Source: a virus. Taken from it: a stretch of DNA of 64,000 nt. Numbering within the stretch: the first letter of the stretch is position 1; each line of letters opens with the position of its first letter. A program made the translations under genes and the position numbers. The notes beneath the pieces were generated by a model that saw only the letters and a program-made list of their open reading frames with translations, was not told the origin of the DNA and made no database searches. Of the stretch, positions 25,128 through 47,217 are shown piece by piece. Location of the stretch: IMG/VR virus record IMGVR_UViG_3300018080_000001, positions 64,001-128,000 of that record; one strand, given 5' to 3'.

Positions 25128-25574
25128 TTAATCTTCCTCAGTTTCACCCAATGCTTTTAAACCTTCTTCTTCCATTTTTTTAAGTCTAGTATAATAATCG
25201 GGTATCTCATTTAAATGATCCAAGGAGATGCGTCGAGAAGTTTCCATATCATCTGTATGCTCGTATTCAACTTCTACCCCCATTGCTAACTCTTTAGGAT
25301 CTACTTCATCTAGCCCAATACCAACTTCATTAGCCCGTCCTGTAGTCAAAAAAATAACATATAATGTAGCCAATTCATAAATGTACTGTTCTATTTTGTC
25401 TACATCATACCCTTCTTCTTCACACCAATCGTGTACCTGATCATCCGTAGGATTAGGGTTATCTTTAATAAATTCTATAATATCTCCGCGTACTTTATCA
25501 TCAGATTTTTGCTGACCATAAAGAGATTTATAAATACGATGAAAACCTTGGTCCCTAATAGTTTTCATTACCAT
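25128..25574 (-). CDS. DUF5661-like acidic protein with shared N-terminal leader
   Basis: 'ELAMGVEVEYEHTDD...ISLDHLNEIPDYYTRL' resembles DUF5661. Leader IRDQGFHRIYKSLYGQ. Confidence 0.65.
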   Translation of the reverse strand: MVMKTIRDQGFHRIYKSLYGQQKSDDKVRGDIIEFIKDNPNPTDDQVHDWCEEEGYDVDKIEQYIYELATLYVIFLTTGRANEVGIGLDEVDPKELAMGVEVEYEHTDDMETSRRISLDHLNEIPDYYTRLKKMEEEGLKALGETEED

Positions 25575-25586
25575 TATACTCCACCA

Positions 25587-26039
25587 TCACGTTTGATAAA
25601 TTTCATCGTCATCAATAAATAAATCAACTGTACCAAATTTATCAGCAGCCGCACTCAAAGCATCTCCAAAATCACCCCAATCACCATCCCAAAAACCCGC
25701 TCCATGCCCATTTCTAGTTAACCAAAAATCGTGTCCTGCTCTAGCTTCATCATTTCCCGTAACTTCATATGCTTGAGAAAGGAGTTCCTCATTTTCCAAC
25801 TGAAATTTAGAACAATCTTCTCGCATCTTATCAATAGTTTCACGATTTATATCATCTATACTATAATTTTCATCCAAAGGAACACCACCACTTGGATCAG
25901 ACTCATCATTTGTCGACCACAAGGCTGTTTCCATATATTGTTGAGTAAACTCATCAATTTCCGGAATAACATAACCTTGTGCTACCTTAAGAACTCTATT
26001 AATTCTACCCATACCTGCATCTGAAATACCGCGTTTCAT
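25587..26039 (-). CDS. Acidic conserved phage protein with shared leader
   Basis: Contains the 'GHDFWLTRNGHGAGFWD' motif. Leader ISDAGMGRINRVLKVAQ. Confidence 0.65.
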   Translation of the reverse strand: MKRGISDAGMGRINRVLKVAQGYVIPEIDEFTQQYMETALWSTNDESDPSGGVPLDENYSIDDINRETIDKMREDCSKFQLENEELLSQAYEVTGNDEARAGHDFWLTRNGHGAGFWDGDWGDFGDALSAAADKFGTVDLFIDDDEIYQT

Positions 26040-26040
26040 T

Positions 26041-26427
26041 TCATTCCTCCAATCTCTTTAGCATCTGCGATAATGCATCTTGTTTATCATAAGGCCACAC
26101 CCAAACTAAGTTATTATCCGCATCCAAAGTACTAAAATTAATATCAAAATAATCTAAGCCCATTTCCAATAGCTGTCCGGCCCTCATTGGCTCTACAACA
26201 ATATCCCTTTGCAATCTTGATCTCAAATCTTCTGCCGTATCCGAATCAGGAACAAAGTATACTTCTCTTTCCCCATTAGGACCTGTTACTATGACTGAAA
26301 AACCTTCAGTATCTTCTATACTACCCGCAGATTCTTCCGATAATGATTGACCTTTTACAATTTTAGCCAACCTTTTAAAATCATTGGAAAATGCTTCCCC
26401 GAAACTTGTGTTCACGCTTCTCCCCAT
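26041..26427 (-). CDS. Acidic hypothetical protein with degenerate shared leader
   Basis: Likely start is the ATG at 26427 (AAGGAAG RBS). Leader FSNDFKRLAKIVKGQ. Confidence 0.6.
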   Translation of the reverse strand: MGRSVNTSFGEAFSNDFKRLAKIVKGQSLSEESAGSIEDTEGFSVIVTGPNGEREVYFVPDSDTAEDLRSRLQRDIVVEPMRAGQLLEMGLDYFDINFSTLDADNNLVWVWPYDKQDALSQMLKRLEE

Positions 26428-26438
26428 TTTTCTTCCTT

Positions 26439-27503
26439 TTACCAAACCAATGAAAATGGTCCTACTGGATCTACGTATCGTATATCCATTGTCTGTTGTA
26501 CTATCACATAGGCAAAAGGATCTGAAGGTGACCAACTTGTAACCTTATATCTAGATCCTGTTTGCACACCATCTTTTATCTCAAACAAAACTTTATTATC
26601 TTTTACATATTCATCTTCAGACCCTATTTCAATTGTAGGATCAAATAAAGAAAATCCCGCCGTCCACACTTTTAAATTATCTTGAACAGGCAAATCCGCG
26701 TGCTCACCCTTAGTATTCCTACTAATAGGAATTGAACGCATCAATAATACCCAAGGTCCAAATCTGTACTCTCCACAATCGGATTTTTCCGAATCTGCAC
26801 CACCTAAAGCATCTCCAGAAGATAAATCAATCCTCGCATATCTTGCTCTAACTATCTCAAATGCAGGAGTTATTATACTGGTGGTATCCCGCGTTAATGT
26901 AGCTTTAAACCTTATATTACCGGAAGAAGGATTTACTGTAGCGAGATTGTCTATATCATCCCAAATAATACCGGAATCCAAAGAATATTCAACAACGACA
27001 TTAGATTGTCCTTCAATACGGACAAATGATAAAGCCTGTGATTCCCAAGTAGATCCAAAAGCTGTTCGACTAAATGATTTATCTCCTGATTCTATAGTAC
27101 CTGAAGTAGAAGTAGAAGTTAAAACAACTTTCGCCGATTTGAAAGTCTTTGTTATTTCAACTCCTGTAAGAGTTACATCAGAATCCGTAGCCGACATCCA
27201 CACAGTATCATAACCAAATTTTAAATAACCAGGAACATACCTCTCACCATAGCAAGAGCCACATTTGGCGTCTGATTGCTTATTGGATTGTTTATAACAA
27301 GCGCATTCATTACCACTTTTGACGCCCATCCACATATCAGATCGGATTCCCCCCGCAAGAATCTGCTCTATCAACAATGCTCTTTGAGAGGCATGTTCCT
27401 GTTCTGCTTTTACATGTTTGAAAATATCACGAGACCAAGATCCTGTGGCCATATGACCAAGACCTTCGCAACCATCCGCACCAAACCTACTCCAGCATAC
27501 CAT
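26439..27503 (-). CDS. Neck / head-closure-like protein
   Basis: Zn-binding neck-type motif 'CACY...CGSCYGERYVPGY' and C-terminal 'RYKVTSW...QQTMDI'. Lies between head and tail genes. Confidence 0.55.
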   Translation of the reverse strand: MVCWSRFGADGCEGLGHMATGSWSRDIFKHVKAEQEHASQRALLIEQILAGGIRSDMWMGVKSGNECACYKQSNKQSDAKCGSCYGERYVPGYLKFGYDTVWMSATDSDVTLTGVEITKTFKSAKVVLTSTSTSGTIESGDKSFSRTAFGSTWESQALSFVRIEGQSNVVVEYSLDSGIIWDDIDNLATVNPSSGNIRFKATLTRDTTSIITPAFEIVRARYARIDLSSGDALGGADSEKSDCGEYRFGPWVLLMRSIPISRNTKGEHADLPVQDNLKVWTAGFSLFDPTIEIGSEDEYVKDNKVLFEIKDGVQTGSRYKVTSWSPSDPFAYVIVQQTMDIRYVDPVGPFSLVW

Positions 27504-27679
27504 TATCTTCTCTCAAATGTTTCCTCTATAATCTCGTGTAAGCTTGTATTTTCATAATCGGAATCTTCTAATTTAGCTTTAAAATCTTCCCATTTATCAG
27601 GATCTAATAAATTAATAAAAAATATATTATCATCTTCAGTATCATTATTTAAATTAACTTTTTTATTGTTTATTATCAT
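27503..27679 (-). CDS. Small acidic hypothetical protein (58 aa, not in the ORF track)
   Basis: MIINNKKVNLNNDTEDDNIFFINLLDPDKW...FERR*. Fills the gap, and its stop overlaps the next ATG. Confidence 0.5.
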   Translation of the reverse strand: MIINNKKVNLNNDTEDDNIFFINLLDPDKWEDFKAKLEDSDYENTSLHEIIEETFERR

Positions 27680-27692
27680 TAATAAAAATTAA

Positions 27693-28028
27693 TTACCAAT
27701 TCATGGTTTGAGCAAGAATATAATCTTCCTCATTCATCCAATCAGGAACCTCTTTTAAAAGATCATCTGCCTCGTCTCCCTGAAAAAACCATCCGTCATC
27801 AGGATATTCAGGATTATCAATAGCTACATAAGGAAGACCTTGATTAATCTCCACAGTCCAACCTTCAGCTCTGGCTGCTTCTGCACGTTGTTCATAATCT
27901 TTTGCCATATTTTTTATTCGTTCAGCTTTTTCAGGATCTCCACCAGCGGCTTCCATATAAATGTCTTCTTCAAATACTTGTGCTACTTTAGCAATCCTTT
28001 TGAAACCATTATCTGATATACTTTTCAT
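27693..28028 (-). CDS. Acidic hypothetical protein with shared leader
   Basis: Likely start is the ATG at 28028 (AAGGAG RBS). Leader MKSISDNGFKRIAKVAQ. Confidence 0.65.
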   Translation of the reverse strand: MKSISDNGFKRIAKVAQVFEEDIYMEAAGGDPEKAERIKNMAKDYEQRAEAARAEGWTVEINQGLPYVAIDNPEYPDDGWFFQGDEADDLLKEVPDWMNEEDYILAQTMNW

Positions 28029-28032
28029 TTTT

Positions 28033-28278
28033 CTACTCCTTATATTGAGAACAGAATTTGTTGTCACCTTCAAAATTATATTCAACAACAGGTCGTCCAT
28101 TAAATGGGCAAACATCAAATATACAAGCAAATCTTTTTTCTTTAATTACACTCATTTTCTTTATTTTTTGTAGTGTATACGTACCATTTTTTACCATTTT
28201 ACCGTACACATCAAAATCCCCTACGACACCAGGAGCTGAACAAGTGTCATCTGATAAATTATAAAATCTACAAACCAA
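28033..28278 (-). CDS. Small Cys-rich hypothetical protein
   Basis: TTG start after a GGGGG RBS. Several cysteines, and it fits the gene packing. Confidence 0.5.
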   Translation of the reverse strand: MVCRFYNLSDDTCSAPGVVGDFDVYGKMVKNGTYTLQKIKKMSVIKEKRFACIFDVCPFNGRPVVEYNFEGDNKFCSQYKE

Positions 28279-28299
28279 ATTTTCCCCCTAATTTTTCTA

Positions 28300-29199
28300 C
28301 TATCCATTGAAATAATAATTCCTAAATAATGATCCTGTTGGTGAAGAGGCAATAAGGTTATACCACATATAGCCCATTCTCGTCTCAACACTCGCAGTAC
28401 CAGACCTTACAAATTTACGTTTAACTTCTGGTACATATTTATCTAACTCAGCTCTTAACTGATTCATCATCGGATTTAATCCTGAAAAATGCTGTAGTAC
28501 AAAACTATGACCCTGATCACTATATGAAGGTATATCGGTATCAATAGCAAATAAAGACTGCGAAGTAATACCAATATATAAAGAGGCTCGTATAAGAACA
28601 TCAGAAAATTGACTGACAGGAAAGTCATCTAAAGTATTCCAAACAGGGTACGGAGGTCTACCATTTATATAAGAAAGACCTTGCATAAGATATAAAATTA
28701 ACATACTATCACTGTACCCGATATAACAGTACTTCTCTGGAACGTTAGGTTTTATCGATTTATCAATCATCAAACGAAACATAGGCAAAATAGACAAAAC
28801 CTTAGGTGATACAACTTGCATCACTTGTGTTCTATATAAATTTTCTGTATTCTCATTAACTCTAGCATGCCAATTAAATAACGTAGTTCCCGACGTTGTA
28901 GTTTCATCAGGAAGCATTTTTATAGAATATTTTCCTGTAGCATCATGTCTGATACGACTAATAGTCGGTGGTGTAGGTTCTGGCCAGTAAGTATCTGTTA
29001 GTATACTCGTACCATTAGAATCAGTAACTTCTAAATCAAGAGCACCTTTAGAACCAGATGGTGTAGTTTCTTCAACTATATCCACCGGCTTACCCTCAGA
29101 ATCCAGTATAGTAACATCCACCAAACGATATGAATTAGTCCTAGCTAATTCAATCATATTCGCTACAGCAGGAACATCTAGTCCGGGTTCAATAATCAT
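28300..29199 (-). CDS. Head-tail adaptor / neck protein
   Basis: Ig-like N-terminus, then adaptor-like 'LRxMID...YSDSML...L..IN..PP...SYSDQGHSF'. Located in the head-tail junction region. Confidence 0.6.
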   Translation of the reverse strand: MIIEPGLDVPAVANMIELARTNSYRLVDVTILDSEGKPVDIVEETTPSGSKGALDLEVTDSNGTSILTDTYWPEPTPPTISRIRHDATGKYSIKMLPDETTTSGTTLFNWHARVNENTENLYRTQVMQVVSPKVLSILPMFRLMIDKSIKPNVPEKYCYIGYSDSMLILYLMQGLSYINGRPPYPVWNTLDDFPVSQFSDVLIRASLYIGITSQSLFAIDTDIPSYSDQGHSFVLQHFSGLNPMMNQLRAELDKYVPEVKRKFVRSGTASVETRMGYMWYNLIASSPTGSLFRNYYFNG

Positions 29200-29204
29200 C
29201 GTAT

Positions 29205-29426
29205 TTAAAAAGAACTTAAATGAGTCTCCGATAAACTCTTTACTTTAGCCAGAAACTCCATGTACGCAGAATCCAACCCTTCTCGTACTTCCGCATCTAA
29301 CCAAGACGGTAGATCTTCCCAAATAGGTTCAATTGCGGTATATAAACGAGAAGAAAGACCCTCCATAGTTTGTTGTGAATTTAAACTCTTAGCCACACGA
29401 CGTAATCCCTTGTCAGAAATAGACAT
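29205..29426 (-). CDS. Small protein with shared leader
   Basis: Leader MSISDKGLRRVAKSLNSQ. Confidence 0.6.
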   Translation of the reverse strand: MSISDKGLRRVAKSLNSQQTMEGLSSRLYTAIEPIWEDLPSWLDAEVREGLDSAYMEFLAKVKSLSETHLSSF

Positions 29427-29437
29427 ATTTCACCTTC

Positions 29438-29818
29438 CTAATCTCCTAGCAATGCCACCACCACGTTCGCATCCACTGGAGTTGCTGTAATTGTTATTGC
29501 CGTAATACCTGCCTTATAAAACATCATAGCGCCATCAGCGGCTATATTGAAAGTATCTGTGCCACCGTTTAGTACAACCTGAATAGCAGCGTCAGTACCG
29601 ACATAAACCATATCGGCAGACGCTACAGTACCAAAAGGAATCGCAACAGGTGCGCCTGTAACTATTTTATAAGAATTAGCACCACCTTCATTATAAGTTA
29701 ATTGGGGACCTGTCGTATCCGAAGATGTGATAGTAGGTGCTCCCAATATTACAGATGTATTAGCCCCACCTGTTACCGTCGGATACGCAATAGTTCCGGT
29801 TAACGTTGCTGTAGCCAT
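29438..29818 (-). CDS. Small beta-rich virion structural protein
   Basis: Thr/Ala/Gly-rich, 126 aa, in the structural region. Confidence 0.5.
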   Translation of the reverse strand: MATATLTGTIAYPTVTGGANTSVILGAPTITSSDTTGPQLTYNEGGANSYKIVTGAPVAIPFGTVASADMVYVGTDAAIQVVLNGGTDTFNIAADGAMMFYKAGITAITITATPVDANVVVALLGD

Positions 29819-29819
29819 T

Positions 29820-30290: not shown

Positions 30291-30643
30291 TAATAACCCA
30301 TGTTTTCAAACTCTTTAAGAACCTCTTCGGGTTTCATACTTTTAATTTTCTCTTTCTCAATATTTAATTTATTATCTAACTTTTCTATTTTATTATTTAT
30401 TTTAATAACTTCAGAAGTAATAAATCCTTCTTTTTCTTCTATAATCCTCTTCTCCGTATTTAAATTAGCTATTTCTGCTTGTACTCTGGCTATTTTAGCT
30501 TCTTTTCTAGCTATAAAAACTTCTTCACTATTTTTTCTTAATATAATATAACAAATAGAAACTATAACAGCTACCAAACCGGAAGCTATCCAAATAATAT
30601 TTTTCTTAATCCAATTCCAAACTTTTTTCATCTTATATATCAC
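30290..30643 (-). CDS. i-spanin-like protein
   Basis: One N-terminal TM followed by a Lys/Glu coiled coil. Near the holin-like gene. Confidence 0.5.
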   Translation of the reverse strand: MIYKMKKVWNWIKKNIIWIASGLVAVIVSICYIILRKNSEEVFIARKEAKIARVQAEIANLNTEKRIIEEKEGFITSEVIKINNKIEKLDNKLNIEKEKIKSMKPEEVLKEFENMGY

Positions 30644-30849
30644 TTATAAACATATTCACTAACAATACGCATTAGCTCGTCTTCCGGTATACTCTGCAAT
30701 ATAACCTCTAAAAAAGCAGTATCACCCACTTCGTTCCTAATTTTTTCTACAAAGTTAAAAGAATCTTCAAAAATATTCTCCTGTCCTACCAACTTCAAAC
30801 TACCGGCTATCCTACCTAAAGCATTGTCCGAAATACCTTTATTCAACAT
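30640..30849 (-). CDS. Small acidic protein with shared leader
   Basis: Likely start is the ATG at 30849 (AAGGAG RBS). Leader GISDNALGRIAGSLKLVGQ. Confidence 0.6.
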   Translation of the reverse strand: MLNKGISDNALGRIAGSLKLVGQENIFEDSFNFVEKIRNEVGDTAFLEVILQSIPEDELMRIVSEYVYK

Positions 30850-31735: not shown

Positions 31736-32590
31736 CTAGACTTGAACATGAGCCAGTTGCTTTAGCACCCAGTCTTTTGCCTTTTGATAAATCAAATGGC
31801 TCTGTAAGTACTCGTAATCAACTCGCTTCAAATTATGGGCCATACCCTCTAGCTTACGAACAAACTCATCCTCCGGAAGCATATCCGATCCGGCATCCTC
31901 ACCCTGTCGCATACAAAGACCAGTAATGGGTGGATAAATCATTTCCTGGACTTCAACAACCTCTTTCTCCGCATCTTTATCAACGTCCTTAGATAGCTTA
32001 CGTCCGGAATCTACCTGCTTAGATCTACTCAAAAGTAACCGTTGCTCTTCGTACGCTTCCAATATTTCAACATCCACAGTAGTACCTTTATCCGAAGCTA
32101 ACTTCTCATAGAAATTATTATATTCATCTTCATTCAAAAGATCCATAATAGGTGGATGCCTGTTCAACATCTTTCGCAAATCCATACTCTTTTTCAATTC
32201 TTCAAAAGGAACGAACTGCGTTAGATTGTAAGGCTTCTGACTCTCAGGAATAATAATCGGATAAATATCCGGAGCCTTACCAAATTGAAGTGCAATTTGT
32301 GTATTAGACATATTCAGCACATACACATCTCGTTCTTCTTTAAAATAGTTGGTAAAATTCTTTACAGCTTGTAGCATATCCATTTTTCTCACCCGTTTCT
32401 CTCCCTTTAACCTTATGGTGAAGGGGTTAGTGTTGAAGACAAGAGCCTTACCCTGTTTAACCAAGATCCTTGCTTTGGCAGGATGTGTAAACGAGATGTG
32501 TCTGTTGTCCACATCCAGAACACTAATTTTTGACTGATCTTTGTTTGGCAATGCAAGGACTCTCGCCCAACTCTCCCATACATTTTGCAT
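31736..32590 (-). CDS. Post-capsid protein with N-terminal PLMP/RRXRR-like domain
   Basis: Residues 22-61, ISVLDVDNRHISFTHPAKARILVKQGKALVFNTNPFTIRL, match the IscB PLMP pattern. A possible internal start lies at 32383. Confidence 0.65.
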   Translation of the reverse strand: MQNVWESWARVLALPNKDQSKISVLDVDNRHISFTHPAKARILVKQGKALVFNTNPFTIRLKGEKRVRKMDMLQAVKNFTNYFKEERDVYVLNMSNTQIALQFGKAPDIYPIIIPESQKPYNLTQFVPFEELKKSMDLRKMLNRHPPIMDLLNEDEYNNFYEKLASDKGTTVDVEILEAYEEQRLLLSRSKQVDSGRKLSKDVDKDAEKEVVEVQEMIYPPITGLCMRQGEDAGSDMLPEDEFVRKLEGMAHNLKRVDYEYLQSHLIYQKAKDWVLKQLAHVQV

Positions 32591-32638: not shown

Positions 32639-33859
32639 TTACTTAACTCCCTTGGCCACAGCCTTACTATTGGCGCAACCGAAAGAAACCAATTCACAGA
32701 ATGACCAACCCTTAACAGTTTCCATATTGGCGTACTTATTAAAGGGTTCGCTAAACAGATCCATTCGAATACCCATCTCACCAAAATACTCAGAAGCCGT
32801 ACAGGCATAGAAAGTACCGGCCGGAATGACTTCCTCAACACCAATACCCGCAGCCGTAAGAATCTGAGCACTTAGGATATTCCCGATATGTCCAGCTAAA
32901 ATCAACTCACGCTCAGTTACAGGATCAACAGCCGTTGACATCGTAGTAATAATGTCAGAAAGCTCCGCACGATTAATGAAGAACTTCTCCACCATCAAAC
33001 GATGCCGCTCAACTTGAAAACGAACAGCCTCAAAAGCTGCAATACCCAACGTGGCATAAGTCGTCACGGTGTTAATCGCGGTTGAAGCGGCATCCGCCAG
33101 AGCAATACCGAGTTTATCCTCCTGAAGCTCAATCTCTTGACGGGCAGTATCCTGCGCACGATCAAGAACATCAAAGTTCAGATGATAGATATCTGCGATA
33201 TCCACGGTCGGAAAAGAGGTAATCTTGTCCTCTTTAGGGGTGATCCATTTGGACTTAATCCTTGATTCCGGAGTCTGCCCGTCCTGACCAACAACCCAAG
33301 CAACCGAACGAACATCTACAGGAATACGGAAAAGTTCACCTTGAGCAACATCTCGCACTCTATACCACTTACGAGCAAAACCTTCGTAATCAAGAATTTG
33401 CTTAATAGGATATGCAAGCTCTTGCCCAACAACATGCCAACCCGCGTCAGATGTTCGATCAGTCAAAGCAGCTGCAAGAATTTCTCGACGCTGCTCCGGA
33501 CTCATAGTCTGAGAGGGATCATCAGGATTGTATGGACGCAGGGAACTTGCTTCCTTAGACGTGGTATTAAGAAGCTGGCGAATCTGCACAAGTGCGTCTT
33601 TCGCGTCATCAGCGTTAATCTGTCCTTCTTTATTGAACATCTTATCGCCGACAGCTGCTTTCACATCACGCGGAGTATAGCTGTAACGCTGCGGATTATA
33701 CTGTCCGTTCTCATCATACAGCTGCTCATCCTTACGAGAAGTCAACCGTTGCTTAGGACGCATGTGTACACGTCGTTGTTTGCCCTTAGTAGCTCTCCTA
33801 GCCGACGTAGAAGGGGCAGGACGATTACTATTACTGATGCTCTTATAGGGATTACCCAT
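32639..33859 (-). CDS. Major capsid protein (HK97-fold) with basic N-terminal propeptide
   Basis: Motifs 'LAYPIKQILDYEGFARK', 'ITSFPTVDIADI....FDVLDRAQD.ARQEIELQED', 'KGWSFCELVSFGCANSKAV'. Follows the scaffold and decoration genes and precedes a terminator. Confidence 0.88.
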   Translation of the reverse strand: MGNPYKSISNSNRPAPSTSARRATKGKQRRVHMRPKQRLTSRKDEQLYDENGQYNPQRYSYTPRDVKAAVGDKMFNKEGQINADDAKDALVQIRQLLNTTSKEASSLRPYNPDDPSQTMSPEQRREILAAALTDRTSDAGWHVVGQELAYPIKQILDYEGFARKWYRVRDVAQGELFRIPVDVRSVAWVVGQDGQTPESRIKSKWITPKEDKITSFPTVDIADIYHLNFDVLDRAQDTARQEIELQEDKLGIALADAASTAINTVTTYATLGIAAFEAVRFQVERHRLMVEKFFINRAELSDIITTMSTAVDPVTERELILAGHIGNILSAQILTAAGIGVEEVIPAGTFYACTASEYFGEMGIRMDLFSEPFNKYANMETVKGWSFCELVSFGCANSKAVAKGVK

Positions 33860-34680: not shown

Positions 34681-36783
34681 CTACTTACGCATATCTCCAA
34701 GTTGCCTGCCCAATTTAGTAGACGTAAGCGCGTTGCTAATTTCATCAAAATTTGTTTCATGAGGAATACTGACAGGTTCCTCTGTTTTCACATTAAAATT
34801 CCCAGAAGACAATTTTTCTCTCATACTTCTGGAATCTCTGCTCGCCACTACATTATCATTCGTTTCCACTGGAGTAGGAAACAGTCCTTCAATATCTTTC
34901 TGTACATCATTCAGATAAGAATCATCCTTTTCCAAAAGATCCGCTGCTTTGGATAAAAGATCTTCAACAAAGCTATCATGACCTTCTTGTGCAATAAGCT
35001 CAATCAATTCTACGGCTGTTCTCTGGTCCATTCCCGTATAGATTTCACCATCAGAAAATTCAACCGCACCTTCATTAGCCGCTAGAACATCAGCCATCGC
35101 AACTTTATAACTATTTGGATAATGATTTAACTTCATCCTAGCAGATGCAATCCGTACACATTTAGAAAACTTATGAGCAAACTTTTCAACTTGCTCTTGC
35201 ACTAATTTCTCAGCACGAGCTTGATATAGTTTCTTATAGTTATCTTCTAATTCAGCTGTTTTGAAATCCACTTCAGCTTCATCCAAAGAAGACTCCTCCG
35301 GCTTATCCGGCTCCTCTTTAGTATCAGTATCCGACTCATCCGTAACACTCATATCCCGAGCATCGCCAATACCTTCGGGCTTTTCCTCGGTAACAACTTC
35401 AATATCATCCTCGATACCGCCCAACTTCTTATAACGTGCTACCGTCTTCTCTTTGGATTTTCTCTCTTTAACTTTTTCTTTTAACGATACTTTAGTAACT
35501 GTTGGTTTCTCCTCAGTATCTGTATCCATTTCCTTCAACACATCAGATTCGCCCTTATCCAGCTCTTCTCTAGAATCCGTATCGCCGCCCCCAGTAACAG
35601 GCTCATCCACTGGAAGGACTTCACCACCTGTAGTCTCTATATCTTCATCCACTCCCGCTTTAAGCAAACGGGAACCGCATAACTCAGCGGCTTTACTCCA
35701 ACCATCACGTATAATAACGCTCTTAACCTTATTAGCTAATTTAGCCAAAGCCTTTTTATCCGCTTTAACTTTCTTATTAGTAAGACCGAAAAACATGGGG
35801 CCATGATCTTCATGGTGCGCAGCTATGTTCCCTTCTTTCGTAATCACAATTTTAGATTTCTTAGCCCGAATGAGTTGTTCTCTATCCAAACCCATCTCAT
35901 CCACCGTAGGCATTTTCTTATCTTCTTCTTTCAATTCCCTAAGCTTTTTCATTTTATCTTCTTTATCATCCTCGTCCTTATCCTTATCCAGCTTAGGTTT
36001 ATCTTTATCCTTTTTATCCCTATCCTTTTCGTCTTCTTCCTCTTCCGCCAGCATGGGTGGAGTACTAACAGGAGGTGGCGTTGACATATCCTGTACCGCT
36101 TGAGCAGACTTAATCCGGGCCAAAGCAATAATATATTTACGAGCCTTACCCATTAACTTCTTTACTTCATCCTCATCACGATCTTCAGATTTTTCATCAA
36201 TCTTCTTTAAATCTTTTACCTTCTTCTCTAGTCCTTCTTCCTCTTTCTTTTCCTTCTTCTCTTCCTTTATTTCTTCCTTCTCTTCTTTCTCTTCTTTCTT
36301 ATCTTCTTCACCCAAAATTAATTTAGCTGCACTCATTATTTTCTTAAGTTCTTCTTTATCGCCTTTTTCTAATTCTTCTTCCTTACCTTCCAACTCCTCA
36401 AGAATTCCTTCTAGTTCTCCTGCACCTTCTTCAATATCTTTTTTCTTATCAATTTCTTTTAACTCCTCTTTAGCTTCGCCCTTATCCTCTTTAGAAAGCA
36501 TTCCCTTTTCCTTCATAAACTCCACCATAAGATCAAATGCTTCTTCAGGATCTTCAACATTCCGCAACTTAGCCAAGCAACCTTCAAAGTCCTCTGGCAT
36601 TTTAACTGCACTACGCCGAAACATAGACTTCCGAATTAAATCTTGTGTCTGACTTTCAATAACACTTCGATCAGACGCGCTTAATTCGATATCTCCGCGA
36701 TTGAATATATCTGCTACAGTCCTAAATAGTTCGATTTTATGATCCATCTTCGGTGCTCCTATGTTACCGAGGTTGAAGTGCAT
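34681..36783 (-). CDS. Capsid scaffolding / prohead core protein
   Basis: Very K/E/D-rich, low-complexity 700-aa ORF between the protease and capsid genes. The true start may be the later ATG (MDHKIELF). Confidence 0.7.
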   Translation of the reverse strand: MHFNLGNIGAPKMDHKIELFRTVADIFNRGDIELSASDRSVIESQTQDLIRKSMFRRSAVKMPEDFEGCLAKLRNVEDPEEAFDLMVEFMKEKGMLSKEDKGEAKEELKEIDKKKDIEEGAGELEGILEELEGKEEELEKGDKEELKKIMSAAKLILGEEDKKEEKEEKEEIKEEKKEKKEEEGLEKKVKDLKKIDEKSEDRDEDEVKKLMGKARKYIIALARIKSAQAVQDMSTPPPVSTPPMLAEEEEDEKDRDKKDKDKPKLDKDKDEDDKEDKMKKLRELKEEDKKMPTVDEMGLDREQLIRAKKSKIVITKEGNIAAHHEDHGPMFFGLTNKKVKADKKALAKLANKVKSVIIRDGWSKAAELCGSRLLKAGVDEDIETTGGEVLPVDEPVTGGGDTDSREELDKGESDVLKEMDTDTEEKPTVTKVSLKEKVKERKSKEKTVARYKKLGGIEDDIEVVTEEKPEGIGDARDMSVTDESDTDTKEEPDKPEESSLDEAEVDFKTAELEDNYKKLYQARAEKLVQEQVEKFAHKFSKCVRIASARMKLNHYPNSYKVAMADVLAANEGAVEFSDGEIYTGMDQRTAVELIELIAQEGHDSFVEDLLSKAADLLEKDDSYLNDVQKDIEGLFPTPVETNDNVVASRDSRSMREKLSSGNFNVKTEEPVSIPHETNFDEISNALTSTKLGRQLGDMRK

Positions 36784-37672
36784 GATTCAGTATACTAGCC
36801 ACCGACCCGGGAATGGTTTCGGCATGCTTAACTACAAAATTTGCGATTTCTTGCAAATCGTTTTTATTAAAATTCTTATTACTGGCCGCTAAACTAAGAA
36901 TATCATCTTGAATTTCAGCCGTCTCATCAGCCGGGTCATCAACCGCAGAAATCTCTTGGAAAATAGTTCCCATACACTTTTCCCAAGCCAACCGCATTGA
37001 TCCATCTTTAGCCTTAAGCGGCATTCTGGCATGTTTTCCACGGACGCATTTACATAATTCAAAATCTGTAGTAGCTACGTTGCCGCATACTGCGCACTCC
37101 GTAGCAACAACATCACAACCCATAGAAAATTTTCTTACAGATCCACTCTTATACGCACTAGCAAGAGCTGGATCTTTTGTAGTATCTACGCCAATAAGCA
37201 ACTCTACAAAAACGTCCCGATCAACGTCTTTACCCAAAGCCTCTTTAACTGCTCTTTTAACAGTGTCATCAGCAGCATTCTGAGTATTGAGATGGCTATC
37301 TAATATAACACCACGACTTAATTTAAGATCGGAAGCATTATGGTTAACAAAATGAGGCTTTAAGTTATAAGTCTTATAAACTTGACTAGCAATTATATCA
37401 TCAAACCGCTCTAATTCAGCTTGTTCCCAACCATCCAAATTATTATTTGGACGGTCAGCACTATTTGCCCGAGCAGGAATAAAAATATAATCCCTTGGAT
37501 CTCTACTTATAACGTAAGCATCCGCAACAGAATCTAATGCAGCCTCAACATTCATATTCACTCCATCTTCCATATAAAAAGATGAAATTTTTGATGAAGC
37601 AGATTTAGATCTGGACCATGAACCATTATGTCGGAAACCTAATGGCTCCCACTGTGATATTTTTCTGAACAT
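36764..37672 (-). CDS. Prohead (capsid maturation) protease
   Basis: Motifs 'PNNNLDGW', 'KPHFVNH', 'GVILDS', 'FSMGC...CAVCGN', 'FQEISAVDDPADETA'. Confidence 0.8.
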   Translation of the reverse strand: MFRKISQWEPLGFRHNGSWSRSKSASSKISSFYMEDGVNMNVEAALDSVADAYVISRDPRDYIFIPARANSADRPNNNLDGWEQAELERFDDIIASQVYKTYNLKPHFVNHNASDLKLSRGVILDSHLNTQNAADDTVKRAVKEALGKDVDRDVFVELLIGVDTTKDPALASAYKSGSVRKFSMGCDVVATECAVCGNVATTDFELCKCVRGKHARMPLKAKDGSMRLAWEKCMGTIFQEISAVDDPADETAEIQDDILSLAASNKNFNKNDLQEIANFVVKHAETIPGSVASILNHALQPR

Positions 37673-38197: not shown

Positions 38198-39184
38198 TCA
38201 CGTTATTAGTGCTCTTGTTTCAGCATCCCAATAATGATTATCGTATCTTATAACCTCTTTACCATCTAAATAATAAGTTTCTAAATCATTTTTATTTATA
38301 TCTGCGTCCAAAAACGAATCTAGCTCTTTTGCCTTACCAAACTCACGAACAAATACATCAGGTCCATATCCATACACATAGCCATTATGAACGTACAAAA
38401 CATCGTCTTCTTCATCATATACGACAACTTCATCAGCTTCAATACCGGTAATATCTCCATAAAAAATATTAGTAAATTTTATTTTATTATACGACAAATT
38501 TACGAGTAGATTTATAAAATTTTTGTTTTTAAATTCTAAAGGAAAATCTACTATAACTTTTCCCGAAATATTAATCTCTTTCACATCCAAATTCCCGAGC
38601 AAAGGTCCACTATATACCTCGCGAAAAATAACCGGAAAATAATCACAAGAACAATGTGCGTGTGATATTGTATCTCCATCTAAAAGAACATTTAATATAT
38701 AATTAGTATCAAAAATACAACCGTTATAAGCATTACAAACCGGACACAATCCAGAAGATTTAAACATAACTTGATGGATACCCATATCCAAAAAAGCTTT
38801 TGTCCTAGCTATAGAGCACAAAGCAAAATAATCATTCACGTTGGACATAGCAAATTCCAAAATATTTATATCGCTATCATCCATAATTAAGTCTTTAGCG
38901 CTTAAAGCAACCCCCTTCATAAGGGTGGACTTAATAGACAAAAAATCAAATATTTTAAAAGCTTTTTTCTTGCTATTTAAGAATATTTCATAATACTTAT
39001 CAGGCTTAATTATAATTTTATCCGAAATAAATTTATCAAGATCGTTTTCTAAAACAGGGCCATTAGCAAGTGATAGGATAGTTTTCTTATCAAACACATT
39101 TTTTTTAATTAACTTTTCACTAGACTTTTTTAGTAAAGCTGCGGAACCATCGCCAACAAAAAAAGAATCAAAATCCTCACTCAC
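38198..39184 (-). CDS. Head morphogenesis protein (SPP1 gp7 / Mu gpF-like)
   Basis: 'CPVCNAYNG...HAHCSC..P' motif, directly after the portal. Confidence 0.65.
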   Translation of the reverse strand: MSEDFDSFFVGDGSAALLKKSSEKLIKKNVFDKKTILSLANGPVLENDLDKFISDKIIIKPDKYYEIFLNSKKKAFKIFDFLSIKSTLMKGVALSAKDLIMDDSDINILEFAMSNVNDYFALCSIARTKAFLDMGIHQVMFKSSGLCPVCNAYNGCIFDTNYILNVLLDGDTISHAHCSCDYFPVIFREVYSGPLLGNLDVKEINISGKVIVDFPLEFKNKNFINLLVNLSYNKIKFTNIFYGDITGIEADEVVVYDEEDDVLYVHNGYVYGYGPDVFVREFGKAKELDSFLDADINKNDLETYYLDGKEVIRYDNHYWDAETRALIT

Positions 39185-40953
39185 TATTCTACTCCCATAG
39201 GCATTGCACCCTCAGAAGGTGCTTCAATACTTTCTTCAGGTGTCCCAGCTTCCCCGCTACCTGGTGCTCCTGGACCTGTAGGCTTAGCAGCATTCGGAGG
39301 TTTAGCTGCCCCTCCAGCTGGCTTAGGAGCCCCTCCCGGGGGAGCAGCTCCCGGCTTAGGCATCGTAGTTTCTTGCTTATACTGCTGTGCTAACTCTGTT
39401 CCCAACGTTTTGTCAATAATCTCTTTTTTCTCTTTCCATTCCACTGCTTTGTTCTTCGTTTCTGCCTTCCAATCAAGACCTAAAACAGAACCAACAGTAG
39501 ACTGGGAAACATCAAATCCCAATTTTTCCATTTGTAAAAGAGCTTGTAGCAAATCACTGTCAACAGAAGGATCTAACTTATTTTTCCATTGTAATTTCGG
39601 CATAATAAGCAAATTCTCATCCGATAGTTCCTGTGCAGTTCTCTTCTTTCTATATCCACCTGCTATTTCTTTTGGACTAGATTTATACCAACCGTTCACA
39701 ATAGCTATCGGCCTTATAAATTTTGGATAAATCCAAACACTCTCAAAATATTGCCTCAAGGACAGAAGACGACGAAGAAAAACTTGAAGACCGCCTTTCA
39801 CACTGCTAAATGAAACCTCTCCCGTCATAAAGCCTTTAGACAATCCAAGAGCTGTTAGCTTTACTTTTTCGATAACATCATGCTCACCACGAATTGAAAT
39901 AGCTCGATCAGTAGTCCCCCAAGCTTCAAAATTTATACCATAATCCCAACAAAGCCATGCATTCGGATCAACCTCACATCTACTCAGCATAGCTAATAAC
40001 TCCGTTTCCCTTTCAGGATCAGGAATCCACTGTGTAGCAGCATCACCAAGTTTAATAACTTTAATCGGACTCGCATGACGCCTATAAGTGGCAATAGTGC
40101 TGTTATATACAGCGTCCTCCACCATCCAAATACGCCATAATCTTGATGCCATAGAAGTACCACGACTATCATAGGGTGATAGTCTCCGAGCAATGAAAGA
40201 ACAATTACTAGACTCCAATTTAATTGGTTGTCTCGCTAAAACGCGGCTAACAAATTCAGATGGCAATGAAGTTCTTAATTTAATAGAGTCTGGAGATCTG
40301 TCGGACAAAAGCTTAATTAGCTCCTCATCGGGTTGCAAATATATAATAGGGTCCATATTTATAATGGGAGAATCTTTTACCTCTATATTATCCGGATTGT
40401 GTAAAGCTATATAATCCCAGATACCCAAATCTTCGTTGAAAAAACAATGAGGGAAAACTTCACCAAGTACTAAATACTCCCTCACCATTTGTTTCAGTCG
40501 ATCAAGAAAATCAACCTTCTCGCACATTAAATTAATAGTATTTTTTATATCCTCTTTATCCCCGTCTTCTACTTGAACTTCAAACGAGCTAACAAGCATC
40601 TCACTGTACATATCCATCGCCATGCCAAACATGGGATCTAATTTTTGGAATAATCTCCAATAAGAATTGGCCGTCCTACGATCAATCGGATACTGCATCC
40701 GATCAGGGCTTTCAATTTCTGGCAGGTACGGCCTTTGCATATGATTAAGTACTTGACCACCACCTCCACCACCATATGTAGTTTGCATAGTACCTGGATT
40801 AAAAGTTCCCATACGTGGAGGTAGAGGATTCAAAGTACCACCGATCTTAGCCACATCATCTCTAACAACTTCCCTCTGCATAGATCTTGGATTAGTAGAT
40901 ATAATGCGCGGTTTAAAAGAATTAGCCCTTTTTTTAAATTCATCTTTATCCAT
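39184..40953 (-). CDS. Portal protein
   Basis: Motifs 'REYLVLGEVF', 'LHNPDNIEV', 'PYDSRGTS', 'PIKVIKLG', 'ALGLSKGFMTGE.SFS'. Pro/Ala/Gly-rich C-tail. Confidence 0.88.
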   Translation of the reverse strand: MDKDEFKKRANSFKPRIISTNPRSMQREVVRDDVAKIGGTLNPLPPRMGTFNPGTMQTTYGGGGGGQVLNHMQRPYLPEIESPDRMQYPIDRRTANSYWRLFQKLDPMFGMAMDMYSEMLVSSFEVQVEDGDKEDIKNTINLMCEKVDFLDRLKQMVREYLVLGEVFPHCFFNEDLGIWDYIALHNPDNIEVKDSPIINMDPIIYLQPDEELIKLLSDRSPDSIKLRTSLPSEFVSRVLARQPIKLESSNCSFIARRLSPYDSRGTSMASRLWRIWMVEDAVYNSTIATYRRHASPIKVIKLGDAATQWIPDPERETELLAMLSRCEVDPNAWLCWDYGINFEAWGTTDRAISIRGEHDVIEKVKLTALGLSKGFMTGEVSFSSVKGGLQVFLRRLLSLRQYFESVWIYPKFIRPIAIVNGWYKSSPKEIAGGYRKKRTAQELSDENLLIMPKLQWKNKLDPSVDSDLLQALLQMEKLGFDVSQSTVGSVLGLDWKAETKNKAVEWKEKKEIIDKTLGTELAQQYKQETTMPKPGAAPPGGAPKPAGGAAKPPNAAKPTGPGAPGSGEAGTPEESIEAPSEGAMPMGVE

Positions 40954-41490: not shown

Positions 41491-41556
41491 TTTTAATTAC
41501 CTCTTTAAAGTTTTTATTATAATATACTTTTTAAAAAACATAGACTTATTAGAACT

Positions 41557-43575: not shown

Positions 43576-43587
43576 ATTAAATCCTTC

Positions 43588-45027
43588 CTACAAACTAACA
43601 GGTTCACCTAAAACAATTACGATTGTACGACTAGAACCTGATCCTGTATCCAACGAATATCCTACTCTCTGGGATTCCCCCGACGTAGGAGCTGTACTCG
43701 TAACTTCACCATCTGTACCAGACATATAAACAACTTGTCCGACAGTCCAAGCTCCAACATCCGACGTAAGAACAGTGGATTTACCAGAACTTTTAATACT
43801 TACAGAAGCACCGCCAGCTACTCCAGTTTGAGCTACGCCAACAACAAAATTCTGATTTGCCGTGTCTTTATTAGCCTTAACAATTTTTCCGGTGGCTGAT
43901 CCATCATCGGCAGACACAATATCGTATTGGGTAATAGCTTCATCCGCTGTATCCGACCACACGCCAACATCAGTTATCTCGCCCTTAAGCTCGTTAAGAC
44001 CACCTATAATAGAAGTCGCAGTAAAACCACTTAAAGAAGTGTCCCCCGCTTCATTCAACGTTATAGTAGCCGCACGAGCACCTAAAGTAAGATCAGCAGC
44101 CGCTCCAGAAACAGTAAAATTGGACGCACTGGTAGCGTCCAAAGCAATGTCAATTCCGTCAACATCAACAGAATTAGCATTACCATTAATTGTTACCCCG
44201 CCAACACCATTCAAAGTAATTACACCTGCTAATGTAGCGGTTAAAGTTAAATTCGTATTCACCGTAGTCCACGTAGAAGCAGCAGCCGCATTCAAAGCAA
44301 TACCCGCTGATGTATCTAAATTAATAGTAGAAGCATCAATATCAACAGAAAGATCATTTGCGCCACCTCTCAAAAATTTAGCATGATCTGTACCATTCAG
44401 CACCTGAAAACCGTCTGCTCCCGTACCGGGAATAGCAGATAAATCAACTGTAAAAGAGTAATCACCAGTAAGATTCCAAATAGTATCATAAGCATCTACA
44501 GTAATCGTAGCCCCGTTATTATAACCGTCGTCCAAATCCCAGGTAGATGCCGCCGCAGTAGACCAAGAAGCCCCATTCCACCATTGCAAATCATTAGATC
44601 CATCTATTCTTATGGCTCCAGTTTCACCCACAGAACTACTAGGAAGAACCAGCACACCCGTACCAGTTACCCTTTCAAAACGCACATCAATTGCAACCAA
44701 CACAGATAGATCACACTTTAAAGAGGCAGAATCGCTACTACCGCCACCAATAGATATAGAGTCTCCAGAATTATCACCAAGAGTGACATTACCATTAAAA
44801 GTAGCACCACCCGTAACAGTTTCCGCACCGTCAACAGCTAAATCGCCTAAAACTCTAGTTATTCTTCCTACAGTACCTAACTTTAGCTCTCCGGTACCAT
44901 TGGCAAGAACCAATAAATCTAAATCCGTGGTATTAGGTTGAACAACACCAACATATAAAGTGTCTGTTTCAGCAACCCTAGTATACTTTCCACTATTTAA
45001 CGTAATTGGATTTCCACTTGCAGACAT
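43588..45027 (-). CDS. Fibre protein with C-terminal capsid-cement (DUF2190-like) domain
   Basis: Beta-repeat shaft and C-terminal 'VVGVA...WTVGQVVYMSGTDGEVTSTAPT...QRVG'. Confidence 0.65.
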   Translation of the reverse strand: MSASGNPITLNSGKYTRVAETDTLYVGVVQPNTTDLDLLVLANGTGELKLGTVGRITRVLGDLAVDGAETVTGGATFNGNVTLGDNSGDSISIGGGSSDSASLKCDLSVLVAIDVRFERVTGTGVLVLPSSSVGETGAIRIDGSNDLQWWNGASWSTAAASTWDLDDGYNNGATITVDAYDTIWNLTGDYSFTVDLSAIPGTGADGFQVLNGTDHAKFLRGGANDLSVDIDASTINLDTSAGIALNAAAASTWTTVNTNLTLTATLAGVITLNGVGGVTINGNANSVDVDGIDIALDATSASNFTVSGAAADLTLGARAATITLNEAGDTSLSGFTATSIIGGLNELKGEITDVGVWSDTADEAITQYDIVSADDGSATGKIVKANKDTANQNFVVGVAQTGVAGGASVSIKSSGKSTVLTSDVGAWTVGQVVYMSGTDGEVTSTAPTSGESQRVGYSLDTGSGSSRTIVIVLGEPVSL

Positions 45028-45357
45028 TTAAACCCCCCTAACTTTTTTATCTAGATTTTTTATATTTTTCTTTTTGCCTAAAATTCTGCCTTTAACACGA
45101 GAAGACTTTTCTTCCATAAATAATTTATTCCTAGCAACCCAAGGTTCCCCATTAATAAAAATAGGAGGTGGCACATAGTTTTCTAAAGCTTTTTTCATTC
45201 TTAGATCTTCAACCTCTAAAATCTCTCCCGGCTCTATAATAAATTCTTCTTTTTTTCCGTCTTCCGTAGGCAATCTAATCTTTATCTTAGAACCTGTACC
45301 ATCCCAGTCTTTAGCAAATACCGACATTTTATCAGAGACTTTAAACTTCGTACCCAT
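45028..45357 (-). CDS. Hypothetical basic protein
   Basis: ORF packed within the fibre cluster. Confidence 0.5.
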   Translation of the reverse strand: MGTKFKVSDKMSVFAKDWDGTGSKIKIRLPTEDGKKEEFIIEPGEILEVEDLRMKKALENYVPPPIFINGEPWVARNKLFMEEKSSRVKGRILGKKKNIKNLDKKVRGV

Positions 45358-45366
45358 TGATAAACC

Positions 45367-46035
45367 TCAATTAAATAAAGGTTCTCCGAAAGAGAACGCA
45401 AAAGTTGTGGCATTCTTTACATATCCAACAGATTGAGATATAGTTCCCGCCGCTGTAACGGGTGTTGCAGTTATTGCACCGTCAACACCTAAAAAATATT
45501 GCGTTCCTGGGGTTAAAGCTGCAAAACCGCCAATTATAACATCCTTGGAAATATAACAAGTAGTGCCCGTAGGTTTATTATATACTACAGATAAAGCAGG
45601 TCCAAAATTAGCCCCCGCAGCATTAGATGCAAATTTAACAGTATCTGCAACAGTATCTATCTGAACCACATCACCGACAGCAACACCCAACGGACAATTA
45701 TATAAGCCCATGCCACTGCCAACAAGAAGATTATAACTCACTCCAGTATCATCAGTATACCACAAAGAAAAACCCGGACCTCCTGTGTTGTCTACCCATA
45801 CCGTAGGATCTCCTGGAGTACCCGGATTAGCGGCTTTACCCAATGGATCAAAAGACACACCACCAAGACCAATACAAGGATCGTTGTCTATACCAAGTTT
45901 TGCCTCAATGTTTTCGATTGCTTCATATCCACTGTTTTGGTGATCTACGATCACCTCATCAACGCCATCAAGAAGACGAGGAAGAAAACTATCTAAAGAA
46001 GTAGGATAAACACTGCCGCCATAAACTGTAGTCAT
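45367..46035 (-). CDS. Capsid-fibre/decoration-like protein
   Basis: Motifs 'YPTSLDSF...AIENIEAKLG' and 'LTPGTQYFLG..GAITATP'. Likely start is the ATG at 46035. Confidence 0.6.
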   Translation of the reverse strand: MTTVYGGSVYPTSLDSFLPRLLDGVDEVIVDHQNSGYEAIENIEAKLGIDNDPCIGLGGVSFDPLGKAANPGTPGDPTVWVDNTGGPGFSLWYTDDTGVSYNLLVGSGMGLYNCPLGVAVGDVVQIDTVADTVKFASNAAGANFGPALSVVYNKPTGTTCYISKDVIIGGFAALTPGTQYFLGVDGAITATPVTAAGTISQSVGYVKNATTFAFSFGEPLFN

Positions 46036-46189
46036 ATTCTCACCATTCCATACATAGGCATACAAGTACCTAGTAGAATTCTAATTTAAGTCTAACATGT
46101 AATCTCGTAGGGAATTTTAAATATAGTACTATATAGTAAGGAATATAAGCTCAGTACGGCATTAACTATAACATAAAAAAATAAAAAAT

Positions 46190-46230
46190 ATATCTCAGTA
46201 TATTGACAGCTTAAAAAAGTGTATTATATT
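46190..46230 (+). promoter_or_regulatory. sigma70-like promoter, copy 1
   Basis: TTGACA at 46203-46208, TATATT at 46225-46230, A-rich UP region. AAGGAG RBS before the ATG at 46254. Confidence 0.75.
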
Positions 46231-46253
46231 TTATATAACACAAGGAGAAAACA

Positions 46254-46436
46254 ATGAAAATCAGAAAAACAGAAACATTGAAAAAAGAAAAATACACCTT
46301 CAAAATATATAGAGAAGGCCAATACTGGTATGCAGATATTCACAGAAAAAACGAAGAAACCTGCACTAGAAAATGGGGATGTACCACAACAAAAAAGAAA
46401 ATTTTAGAGTATATTAATCACTTTTGCAAAAAATAA
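46254..46436 (+). CDS. Small basic hypothetical protein (probably early-expressed)
   Basis: Has its own promoter and a strong RBS. Opposite strand to the structural operon. Confidence 0.7.
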   Translation: MKIRKTETLKKEKYTFKIYREGQYWYADIHRKNEETCTRKWGCTTTKKKILEYINHFCKK

Positions 46437-46441
46437 AAAAC

Positions 46442-46483
46442 ATATCTCAGTATATTGACAGCTTAAAAATTAAGTACTATGTT
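46442..46483 (+). promoter_or_regulatory. sigma70-like promoter, copy 2
   Basis: Contains 28 nt identical to copy 1 (ATATCTCAGTATATTGACAGCTTAAAAA). TTGACA at 46455-46460, a 17-nt spacer, then TATGTT. Confidence 0.75.
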
Positions 46484-46506
46484 TTATTTAACAAAGGAGA
46501 AAAACA

Positions 46507-46833
46507 ATGAAAAAAATAACCAGCATAGATGAAGTCCGCATCGCAAACCAAGACGTGGCAAACGCTGTTCTTATTAGAATCACAACAAAACGAGGATCTG
46601 TTCCAGGAATGCCTTGGTTTGGATCTAGACTACATACTATTACTACGCTTGGAGATTGTCATACTAGAGTAATAGAAGGTTTTCTTCTGGAAGCTGTAGC
46701 TGATTTGGTTAGTGAAAATAAGATCAAAGATGTTTCTGCCACTGCATTTATAGAAAACTACAAATTTAATTGGGAACTATCTTGGGTAGACTGCACTGAT
46801 GGTCAAAAACACCTCTTAGTATCGCCAGAATAA
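46507..46833 (+). CDS. Mu gp46 / gp25-like baseplate-wedge homologue
   Basis: 'NAVLIRITTKRGS.P..P.FGSRLH......EAVADLV....IKDV' follows the GP46/GPW family pattern. Confidence 0.65.
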   Translation: MKKITSIDEVRIANQDVANAVLIRITTKRGSVPGMPWFGSRLHTITTLGDCHTRVIEGFLLEAVADLVSENKIKDVSATAFIENYKFNWELSWVDCTDGQKHLLVSPE

Positions 46834-46839
46834 AAAGCG

Positions 46840-47217
46840 CTACTCCAACCTCTCGTACTCATACCTATCTCGTAAATTAGTCCATATAAATTGACCTTTA
46901 GACGGTGCAGCAAAAAACTGATCAAACACTTCGGGCTCAACATTATAATAACCGTATAAAGATTCTGGCCTGTTTCCTTTGGCTAAAAATCTTACATACA
47001 AAATTTGGTTATCATCGTCATACCCAAATTCTTTTACATTAGAACTTTCAACAGGATACATCGTTGGAAACTGATCACCAGTTTCCTCCTCTACAACCTG
47101 CTCCGCATCCTCTACAAACTGCTCTTCTTCATACAAAGGTGTTTCATATTCCTGTTGAGCCATTTTATAACCTACTGTTGAAGCAATACGCTCCAATGCT
47201 GAATCAGATAAACTCAT
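46840..47217 (-). CDS. KTSC-domain protein with shared leader
   Basis: KTSC pattern 'VESSNVKEFGYD....LYVRF...YGYYNV...F..F..APSKGQF'. Leader LSDSALERIASTVGYKMAQ. Confidence 0.8.
   Translation of the reverse strand: MSLSDSALERIASTVGYKMAQQEYETPLYEEEQFVEDAEQVVEEETGDQFPTMYPVESSNVKEFGYDDDNQILYVRFLAKGNRPESLYGYYNVEPEVFDQFFAAPSKGQFIWTNLRDRYEYERLE

Follow-up and report, generated by a model that had tools for sequence, protein, structure and literature searches.

A shared N-terminal leader on unrelated acidic proteins of an uncultured phage clade is a candidate capsid-targeting propeptide

Results

Seven leader genes in the window and eleven in the genome

The stretch of DNA analysed here (the window, 64,000 nucleotides) spans bases 64001-128000 of IMGVR_UViG_3300018080_000001 (genome G000), a phage record of 170,099 bp that is complete and has terminal repeats. 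Our subject is a short N-terminal leader, or tag, carried by small proteins of this phage whose remaining parts (the cargos) differ from one another. A first-pass annotation had described seven such genes, and we found all seven open reading frames (ORFs) with their leaders at the coordinates given there, on the minus strand, which carries nearly all genes of the window:

25128..25568, minus strand: leader gene 1, leader MKTIRDQGFHRIYKSLYGQ at 25512-25568, acidic cargo with a DUF5661 domain
25587..26039, minus strand: leader gene 2, 21-residue leader at 25977-26039 with the end VAQ, cargo phrog_1915 (GHDFWLTRNGHG motif)
26041..26427, minus strand: leader gene 3, leader end KGQ at 26347
27693..28028, minus strand: leader gene 4, 17-residue leader MKSISDNGFKRIAKVAQ at 27978-28028
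29205..29426, minus strand: leader gene 5, 18-residue leader at 29373-29426 with the end NSQ
30640..30849, minus strand: leader gene 6, 23-residue leader at 30781-30849 with the end VGQ
46840..47217, minus strand: leader gene 7, 21-residue leader at 47155-47217 with the end MAQ, cargo a KTSC domain

Two starts deserve comment. Gene 1 more likely begins at 25568 (MKTIRDQ...) than at 25574, the position chosen before, and gene 3 begins at ATG 26427 or at GTG 26415, the latter of which would give a 23-residue leader. Gene 6 is placed between holin-like and membrane/coiled-coil lysis-type genes. The cargo names proposed earlier held up, with E values of 4e-18 for DUF5661 and 4e-16 for KTSC and a match of the GHDFWLTRNGHG protein to phrog_1915.

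A regular expression made post hoc from the seven leaders gave seven true matches and one spurious match, compared with about 0.4 per shuffled window. We also built a 13-residue hidden Markov model (HMM) of the leader and ran it over all 2427 stop-to-stop frames of the genome, which yielded 10 matches at 12-22 bits, the next best scoring 7.8. One round of iteration, with members added from the nearest relative (G001, complete at 157,936 bp, with 72% identity in the capsid protein), raised the number to 11 leader genes in the genome, all starting exactly at a coding-strand start codon. Four of them lie outside the window, at genome positions 6849-7280, 8415-8858, 8919-9185, and 9201-9473, and a degenerate twelfth leader (MVDYRKVSKIIKGE) is possible at genome 6061-6435. 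The seven genes of the first-pass annotation are thus all real but undercount the set, which extends over the full genome and into relatives; G001 carries 17-19 tagged genes in three clusters.

The tag has a conserved core, two fixed lengths, and a sharp end

Over 95 distinct leaders the consensus reads M-K/R-L-K/R-G-I/L-S-D-x-G-x-K-R-I/V-A, followed by one of two ends. In the short end Gln comes right after Ala, for a tag length of 16 or 15 (15 cases in the worldwide search described below); the long end reads K-x-V/I-K-(G/A/S)-Gln, for a length of 21 or 20 (43 worldwide cases). The [GAS]-Gln end is found in 80 of the 95 leaders. Among these 80, the last conserved position, which we call P1, is Gln in 77 and Glu in 3; the preceding residue (P2) is Gly in 35, Ala in 31, and Ser in 14, and P3 is mostly Lys. 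Conservation collapses past P1, and acidic residues prevail downstream.

The tag itself is basic, with a net charge of +0.5 to +5.5, and its R-I-A segment would be amphipathic if helical (hydrophobic moment 0.62 vs 0.35 in shuffles). The core I-S-D-x-G-L-x-x-I-A also resembles CC-type leucine-rich repeats, which explains the few false profile matches, and this likeness suggests that the core may form a turn plus helix cap.

Is the likeness one of peptide or of DNA? At the ten best-conserved codons, 66-67% of the identical residues per pair are written with different codons, and the nucleotide identity of the leaders (0.56-0.58) is no higher than their amino-acid identity. Upstream of the leader genes a ribosome-binding site is the sole common element. 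Because codon usage differs at identical residues, we conclude that the conservation of the leader is selected on the protein and not on the DNA.

The cargos are unrelated, exchanged, and uniformly acidic

As the first-pass annotation had it, the proteins are unrelated after the tag. The 72 worldwide tagged proteins fall into 61 cargo groups, showing the tag to be modular, and the cargos of G000 and G001 share no mutual similarity at E 1e-3. Only one or two cargos (phrog_1915 and DUF5661) are common to the two genomes. What the cargos do have in common is their charge, and the earlier description 'mostly acidic' understated it: all 28 cargos of G000 and G001 have an isoelectric point (pI) of 4.05-4.49, compared with a genome median of 5.4, and 69 of 71 worldwide cargos have a pI below 5.

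Several proteins illustrate the boundary between tag and cargo. In 88 other phages the phrog_1915 cargo has homologues that lack a leader and whose alignment begins at residue 24-27, the corresponding gene of Klebsiella phage FBKp34 begins about at the tag end, and structural look-alikes (120-123 residues) cover only residues 28-150. In Caulobacter phages such homologues lie within the terminal repeats, and in a Klebsiella phage within regions rich in promoters and small genes, locations that would be typical of early genes. Second tags stand at module junctions in three worldwide proteins (P0115, P0116, and P0160), and the DUF5661 protein of G001 has ..RLVKGQ between its two halves.

The KTSC domain provides a natural experiment that supports modularity, since it is tagged only when it is a separate gene. 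In G000 it is a gene of its own with its own tag; in G001 it forms the C-terminus of a larger protein (L009, G001 60816-62090) and has no leader of its own. The larger protein is the homologue of the neighbour of leader gene 7:

47219..48613, minus strand: 464-residue acidic protein with an internal leader-like NISSKLSKAAQ at 48392-48424, which is a resemblance only

At the place of this internal motif G001 reads IVERLARAAQ. The C-terminal 130 residues of the protein in the window differ from those of the G001 homologue, a gene split or fusion, and a tblastn search with the 464-residue protein against GenBank phages gave no matches.

Pfam names only 3 of 65 worldwide cargos; the folded domains among the cargos are DUF5661, KTSC, ArdA, and Lcl_C. 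The ArdA domain belongs to P0167, a protein of a relative and not of the window (PF07275, 58.7 bits vs a curated cut-off of 27). Residues 22-112, directly after the tag, match positions 74-151 of the 155 in the PF07275 model and so only its C-terminal half, and the next gene on the same fragment also starts with a tag. ArdA proteins inhibit type I restriction by mimicking DNA. The earlier proposal of DNA-mimic or anti-defence cargo thus gains one example, in a relative, with nearly all other cargos lacking a known function.

The tag is a trait of one uncultured clade

An exhaustive profile search of 1.84 billion representative proteins returned 80 matches at E <=0.001, of which 72 start at residue 1 of small proteins. 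Two contigs with such matches also carry homologues of genes of this phage; on one of them, L031, three leader genes follow the large terminase homologue directly and in tandem. A second route led through the prohead protease described below, which has at least 100 metagenomic homologues at 44-72% identity. In four of the five relatives whose protease neighbourhoods we retrieved, tagged genes follow shortly after the capsid gene (two genes in L025, five in L026, two in L027, and four to five in L029), and all cargos are acidic.

Other searches were less productive. A word-indexed protein search and degenerate leader patterns, scanned over IMG/VR and JGI metagenomes, recovered only G000, G001, and one fragment; the limits of the patterns account for this sparse yield, since many more members came to light through the profile search and around the protease genes. 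No leaders were detected with this profile in two more distant relatives, Rctr197k (50 kb examined) and G002. From these distribution data we conclude that the tag is a trait of one sizeable uncultured clade.

Some further observations concern gene arrangement and other N-termini. G001 contains dense tandem arrays, with six tagged genes in about 5 kb upstream of the terminase block (L008:5917-10680) and another six in about 2.5 kb near 12 kb (L006:11536-14002); the arrays suggest hot spots for cargo exchange. In G002 (IMGVR_UViG_3300027881_000013; capsid protein 58% identical) three adjacent genes (L014:2811-4361) share another basic N-terminus, M.AN.DARRLHN.TE.R[VI]A.., on unrelated acidic bodies with a pI of 4.05-4.85, and this N-terminus may be a tag of the same kind that has diverged. 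Outside the window, at 2.8-7.7 kb of our genome (L005:2846-7687), the minus strand has at least six small ORFs with the N-termini MK..GKSV..LV.DS or MKDLGL..., and DSV/WDSV repeats fill two of them; these ORFs represent a second common N-terminus or a paralogous family.

Most leader genes lie among head genes, and the phage encodes a gp21-type protease

The first-pass annotation placed the leader genes among late structural and lysis genes, and the neighbourhood agrees. Tagged genes are interleaved with genes for the large terminase, portal, protease, scaffold, a second head protein and capsid, and with neck-type and holin-/spanin-like genes. The main head genes of the window are:

32639..33859, minus strand: major capsid protein, whose basic N-terminal 80 residues end in ..MFNKEGQ, followed by INADD (33620-33634)
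34681..36783, minus strand: scaffold-like protein of 700 residues, very acidic, candidate docking partner of the tag
36764..37672, minus strand: T4 gp21-type prohead protease that presumably does the processing (phrog_18299, E 1.3e-29)
39184..40953, minus strand: portal protein of 589 residues (phrog_16240, E 8e-69)
54580..56763, minus strand: large terminase

The protease has His111 and Ser183 invariant in 40 homologues. Its structural model (predicted local distance difference test (pLDDT) score 84.9) matches T4 gp21 (5JBL_A) with Z 11.8 and a root-mean-square deviation of 2.7 Å over 146 of 165 residues, and herpesvirus proteases with Z 5-5.8. Inserted in the gp21 fold is an invariant cysteine cluster (C193, C196, and C207, with a fourth Cys/His nearby), which looks like a zinc-ribbon-type insert. 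A predicted complex of the protease (40-row alignment) and the leader (38-row) scored 0.07 against a mark of 0.32, a run without controls that gives no evidence either way.

The scaffold-like protein has a conserved ALxxLANKV motif (35719-35754) weakly resembling the second half of the leader (hhalign P = 0.047, marginal). We rejected the idea that the leader is a copy of the scaffold C-terminal tail (EISNAL..LGRQLG vs GISDNALGRIAG), as 66% and 13% of random windows score equally.

The N-terminal extension of the capsid protein ends in MF(D/N)xxG-E in six relatives and in G-Q here, and similarity to the capsid proteins of PaBG and Lu11 begins past this point. This would fit a rule of a small residue followed by Glu or Gln, at one site only. 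A model of the capsid protein (7-row alignment) reached a pLDDT of 36 and did not locate the start of the ordered fold.

Two neighbouring genes are recorded as well. Directly after the capsid gene, at 31736-32590, lies a gene for a protein with an RRXRR (PF14239) N-terminal domain, whose position is kept in five of six relatives read (L025, L026, L028, faintly L029, and the P0019 and P0109 contigs; none is listed for L027). In several relatives the gene at the portal position encodes about 1005-1048 residues with LAGLIDADG/intein Pfam matches (L025:5452-8469, L027:5246-8392, and L028:5214-8273), and these portal genes appear to bear inteins.

Discussion

A capsid-targeting propeptide is the favoured reading

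The directly supported parts of the picture are the anatomy of the tag, its distribution, selection at the peptide level, the charge rule, the turnover of cargos, the gene neighbourhood, and the fold of the protease. To account for them we favour, with moderate confidence, the view that the leader is a capsid-targeting propeptide similar in function to the capsid-targeting sequence (CTS) of phage T4, probably cut after Gln, which loads ejectable acidic effectors into the head. The tagged proteins would be made late, along with the head proteins, and the basic amphipathic tag would dock on some part of the prohead core during assembly. The 700-residue scaffold, itself very acidic, is the first candidate for this partner, and the cargo would become enclosed as the shell forms. 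The gp21-type protease might then cut after the conserved small residue and Gln and free the cargo, which would be retained in the head and leave through the tail with the DNA. Once ejected, such proteins could be at work, against restriction for instance, ahead of all phage gene expression. Their acidity may keep them from sticking to the DNA or to an electronegative tail channel.

The first-pass annotation put the cut after the small residue and before Gln, a position without support: conservation ends only after Gln, Glu sometimes takes the place of Gln, and gp21-type proteases cut after Glu. Our guess is a cut after Gln, which we prefer because Gln is strictly kept, Glu can replace it, and the homologous enzymes have Glu at P1.

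A number of observations weigh against the propeptide reading. On the side of the enzyme, the gp21-type proteases that have been studied cut after Glu and not after Gln. A position-specific scoring matrix of the leader end, applied to all long proteins of both complete genomes, gave 15 matches outside the leaders vs 13.75 in shuffles; since leader-end motifs are not enriched, the matches in the scaffold (..ARIKSAQ), the portal, and the 464-residue protein cannot be counted as cleavage sites. A conserved [AS]-Gln near the N-terminus of the protease itself is present in G000 and G001 and not across the 40 homologues, and we discarded it. On the side of the tag, about 15% of the leaders have no small-residue-Gln end, 4 of the 11 tagged genes (genome 6.8-9.5 kb) lie far from the head genes among small genes, L028 had no leader genes in the stretch examined around its protease, and a tblastn search with the leader against 50,697 GenBank phage records gave no matches. 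On the side of the cargo, T4 internal proteins are mostly basic, and acidic core proteins are usually expelled or degraded, so that retention beside the DNA is not a given.

Alternative explanations

The alternative that survives best, though we consider it unlikely, is that the tag acts in the infected cell and not in the virion, as a localisation or docking signal: a membrane-binding amphipathic helix or a motif that binds a hub protein. The R-I-A segment, amphipathic if helical, and the basic charge of the tag would suit this role, as would the tagged genes outside the structural region. Membrane binding, however, does not need what is conserved here: G5, S7, D8, G10, R13, A15, and Gln, together with the two fixed lengths, are kept across protease identities of 47-72%, which is more than lipid binding needs. 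In addition, most tagged genes lie inside the head/packaging module, and docking in the cell leaves the sharp small-residue-Gln boundary, with a linker after it, without an account.

Somewhat less probable still is that the tag does target the prohead while the acidic proteins are core or scaffold fillers that are cut and expelled during DNA packaging. The uniform acidity of the cargos, which the scaffold shares, is what one would look for in such fillers, and acidic core proteins of T4 are degraded and leave the head (PMC9026906). Mere filler would not be expected, however, to show the extreme diversity and turnover of these cargos or to consist of folded domains, and the ArdA cargo suggests a function in the next cell to be infected.

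We give little credence to the idea that the tag controls timing or serves as a degron, read by a protease of host or phage that works outside the capsid. Its shortness, its conservation at the N-terminus, and its defined end could serve this purpose, but we saw no other protease candidate, the gene context is morphogenetic, and none of our tests favours this reading. Even less probable is a recognition leader for a modifying enzyme, as in ribosomally synthesised and post-translationally modified peptides. A single tag on many unrelated proteins is a hallmark of such systems too; against this, the radical-SAM family PF04055 is absent from both complete genomes (G000 and G001; controls positive 14/14), no enzyme gene recurs beside the tagged genes in seven loci, and the cargos are folded domains of 50-250 residues. 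Finally, a repeated DNA cassette or translation-initiation element has nothing but the position at gene starts in its favour and, given the different codons at identical residues, the nucleotide identity not above the amino-acid identity, and upstream regions with only a ribosome-binding site in common, can practically be set aside.

What the tag would mean

Should the tag indeed serve to load the head, the proteins that carry it would form a catalogue of factors active from the very start of infection. This catalogue already holds at least 61 unrelated families, nearly all without known function. Anti-restriction and other counter-defence proteins belong to such a class, and the ArdA domain fits it. 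CTS-style loading would then extend beyond T4 and recur among phages whose prohead protease has the gp21 fold; in this clade the address would differ, the cut motif would have Gln in place of Glu, and the cargos would obey a strict charge rule. Being short, natural, and well delimited, the tag would also suit the packaging of chosen proteins into capsids.

A bolder version is one that we hold only tentatively and rather doubt: a clade-wide portable tag of 16 or 21 residues, a gp21-type protease shifted towards Gln at P1, and a large, rapidly exchanged acidic, DNA-mimic-like arsenal, ArdA included, delivered with the genome. If this were true, the uniform acidity could be a physical requirement on proteins that must pass an electronegative tail channel together with the DNA, and the tag would be a ready index of new anti-defence proteins as well as a packaging handle.

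Comparison with known systems

The closest parallel is T4, where IPI, IPII, IPIII, and Alt carry a 10-residue CTS that directs them, diverse as they are, to the scaffold core and that gp21 removes (PMC3012670, PMC9026906; Mullaney and Black 1996 as cited there). Which internal proteins are present differs from one T-even phage to another, and an anti-restriction protein is among them (PMC3012670, PMC9026906). As in T4, a short N-terminal peptide is common to otherwise unrelated, fast-evolving proteins of one phage, a fixed short motif closes the tag, the genome encodes a protease with the gp21 fold, the scaffold core is separate, and the anti-restriction protein of T4 finds a counterpart in the one ArdA-like cargo. 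The differences are equally clear. The T4 sequence (MKTYQEFIAE, with the end (L/I)-x-Glu) has no similarity to our tag, which ends in a small residue and Gln and is 16 or 21 residues long instead of 10. The cargos here are acidic whereas those of T4 are mostly basic, 11-19 genes per genome are tagged instead of three or four, many of them inside the head/neck/lysis operon, and the capsid protein is of the PaBG/Lu11/phage G kind, unlike gp23. For this clade, packaging and cleavage are proposed steps.

In phiKZ, 201phi2-1, and SPN3US, propeptides are cut by gp175/gp245 after (S/A/G or A)-X-Glu (PMC10052503, PMC9026906), and SPN3US gp45 and gp225 have N-terminal propeptides of 20 and 24 residues (PMC10052503). 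These phages share with ours the gp21-like protease fold and the existence of short N-terminal propeptides, and many of their head-internal ejection proteins are processed. Their propeptides have no one common sequence, however, and cleavage there has been proven by mass spectrometry. The motif also differs: they have a small residue at P3 and Glu at P1, whereas here the small residue is at P2 and P1 is Gln, with Glu in 3 of 80.

The Dar system of phage P1 (DarA, Hdf, and DarB) consists of head-packaged anti-restriction proteins (PMC9024508, PMC12810830). They are loaded during head morphogenesis and delivered with the DNA, as we propose for the tagged cargos, but what governs their loading is particular partner proteins and the order in which proteins are incorporated, not one portable tag on dozens of proteins. 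Encapsulin cargo-loading peptides are likewise short and portable and direct diverse cargo into an HK97-fold shell. They differ in that they are usually C-terminal, bind the shell protein directly, and stay uncleaved, with no sequence likeness to the tag, and encapsulins, unlike phage heads, have no portal, DNA, or protease.

Relative to known CTS systems, what would be new in this clade, judging from its sequences, is the sequence and length of the tag, its end motif, the strict acidity of the cargos, the number and position of the tagged genes, and a capsid lineage other than that of T4.

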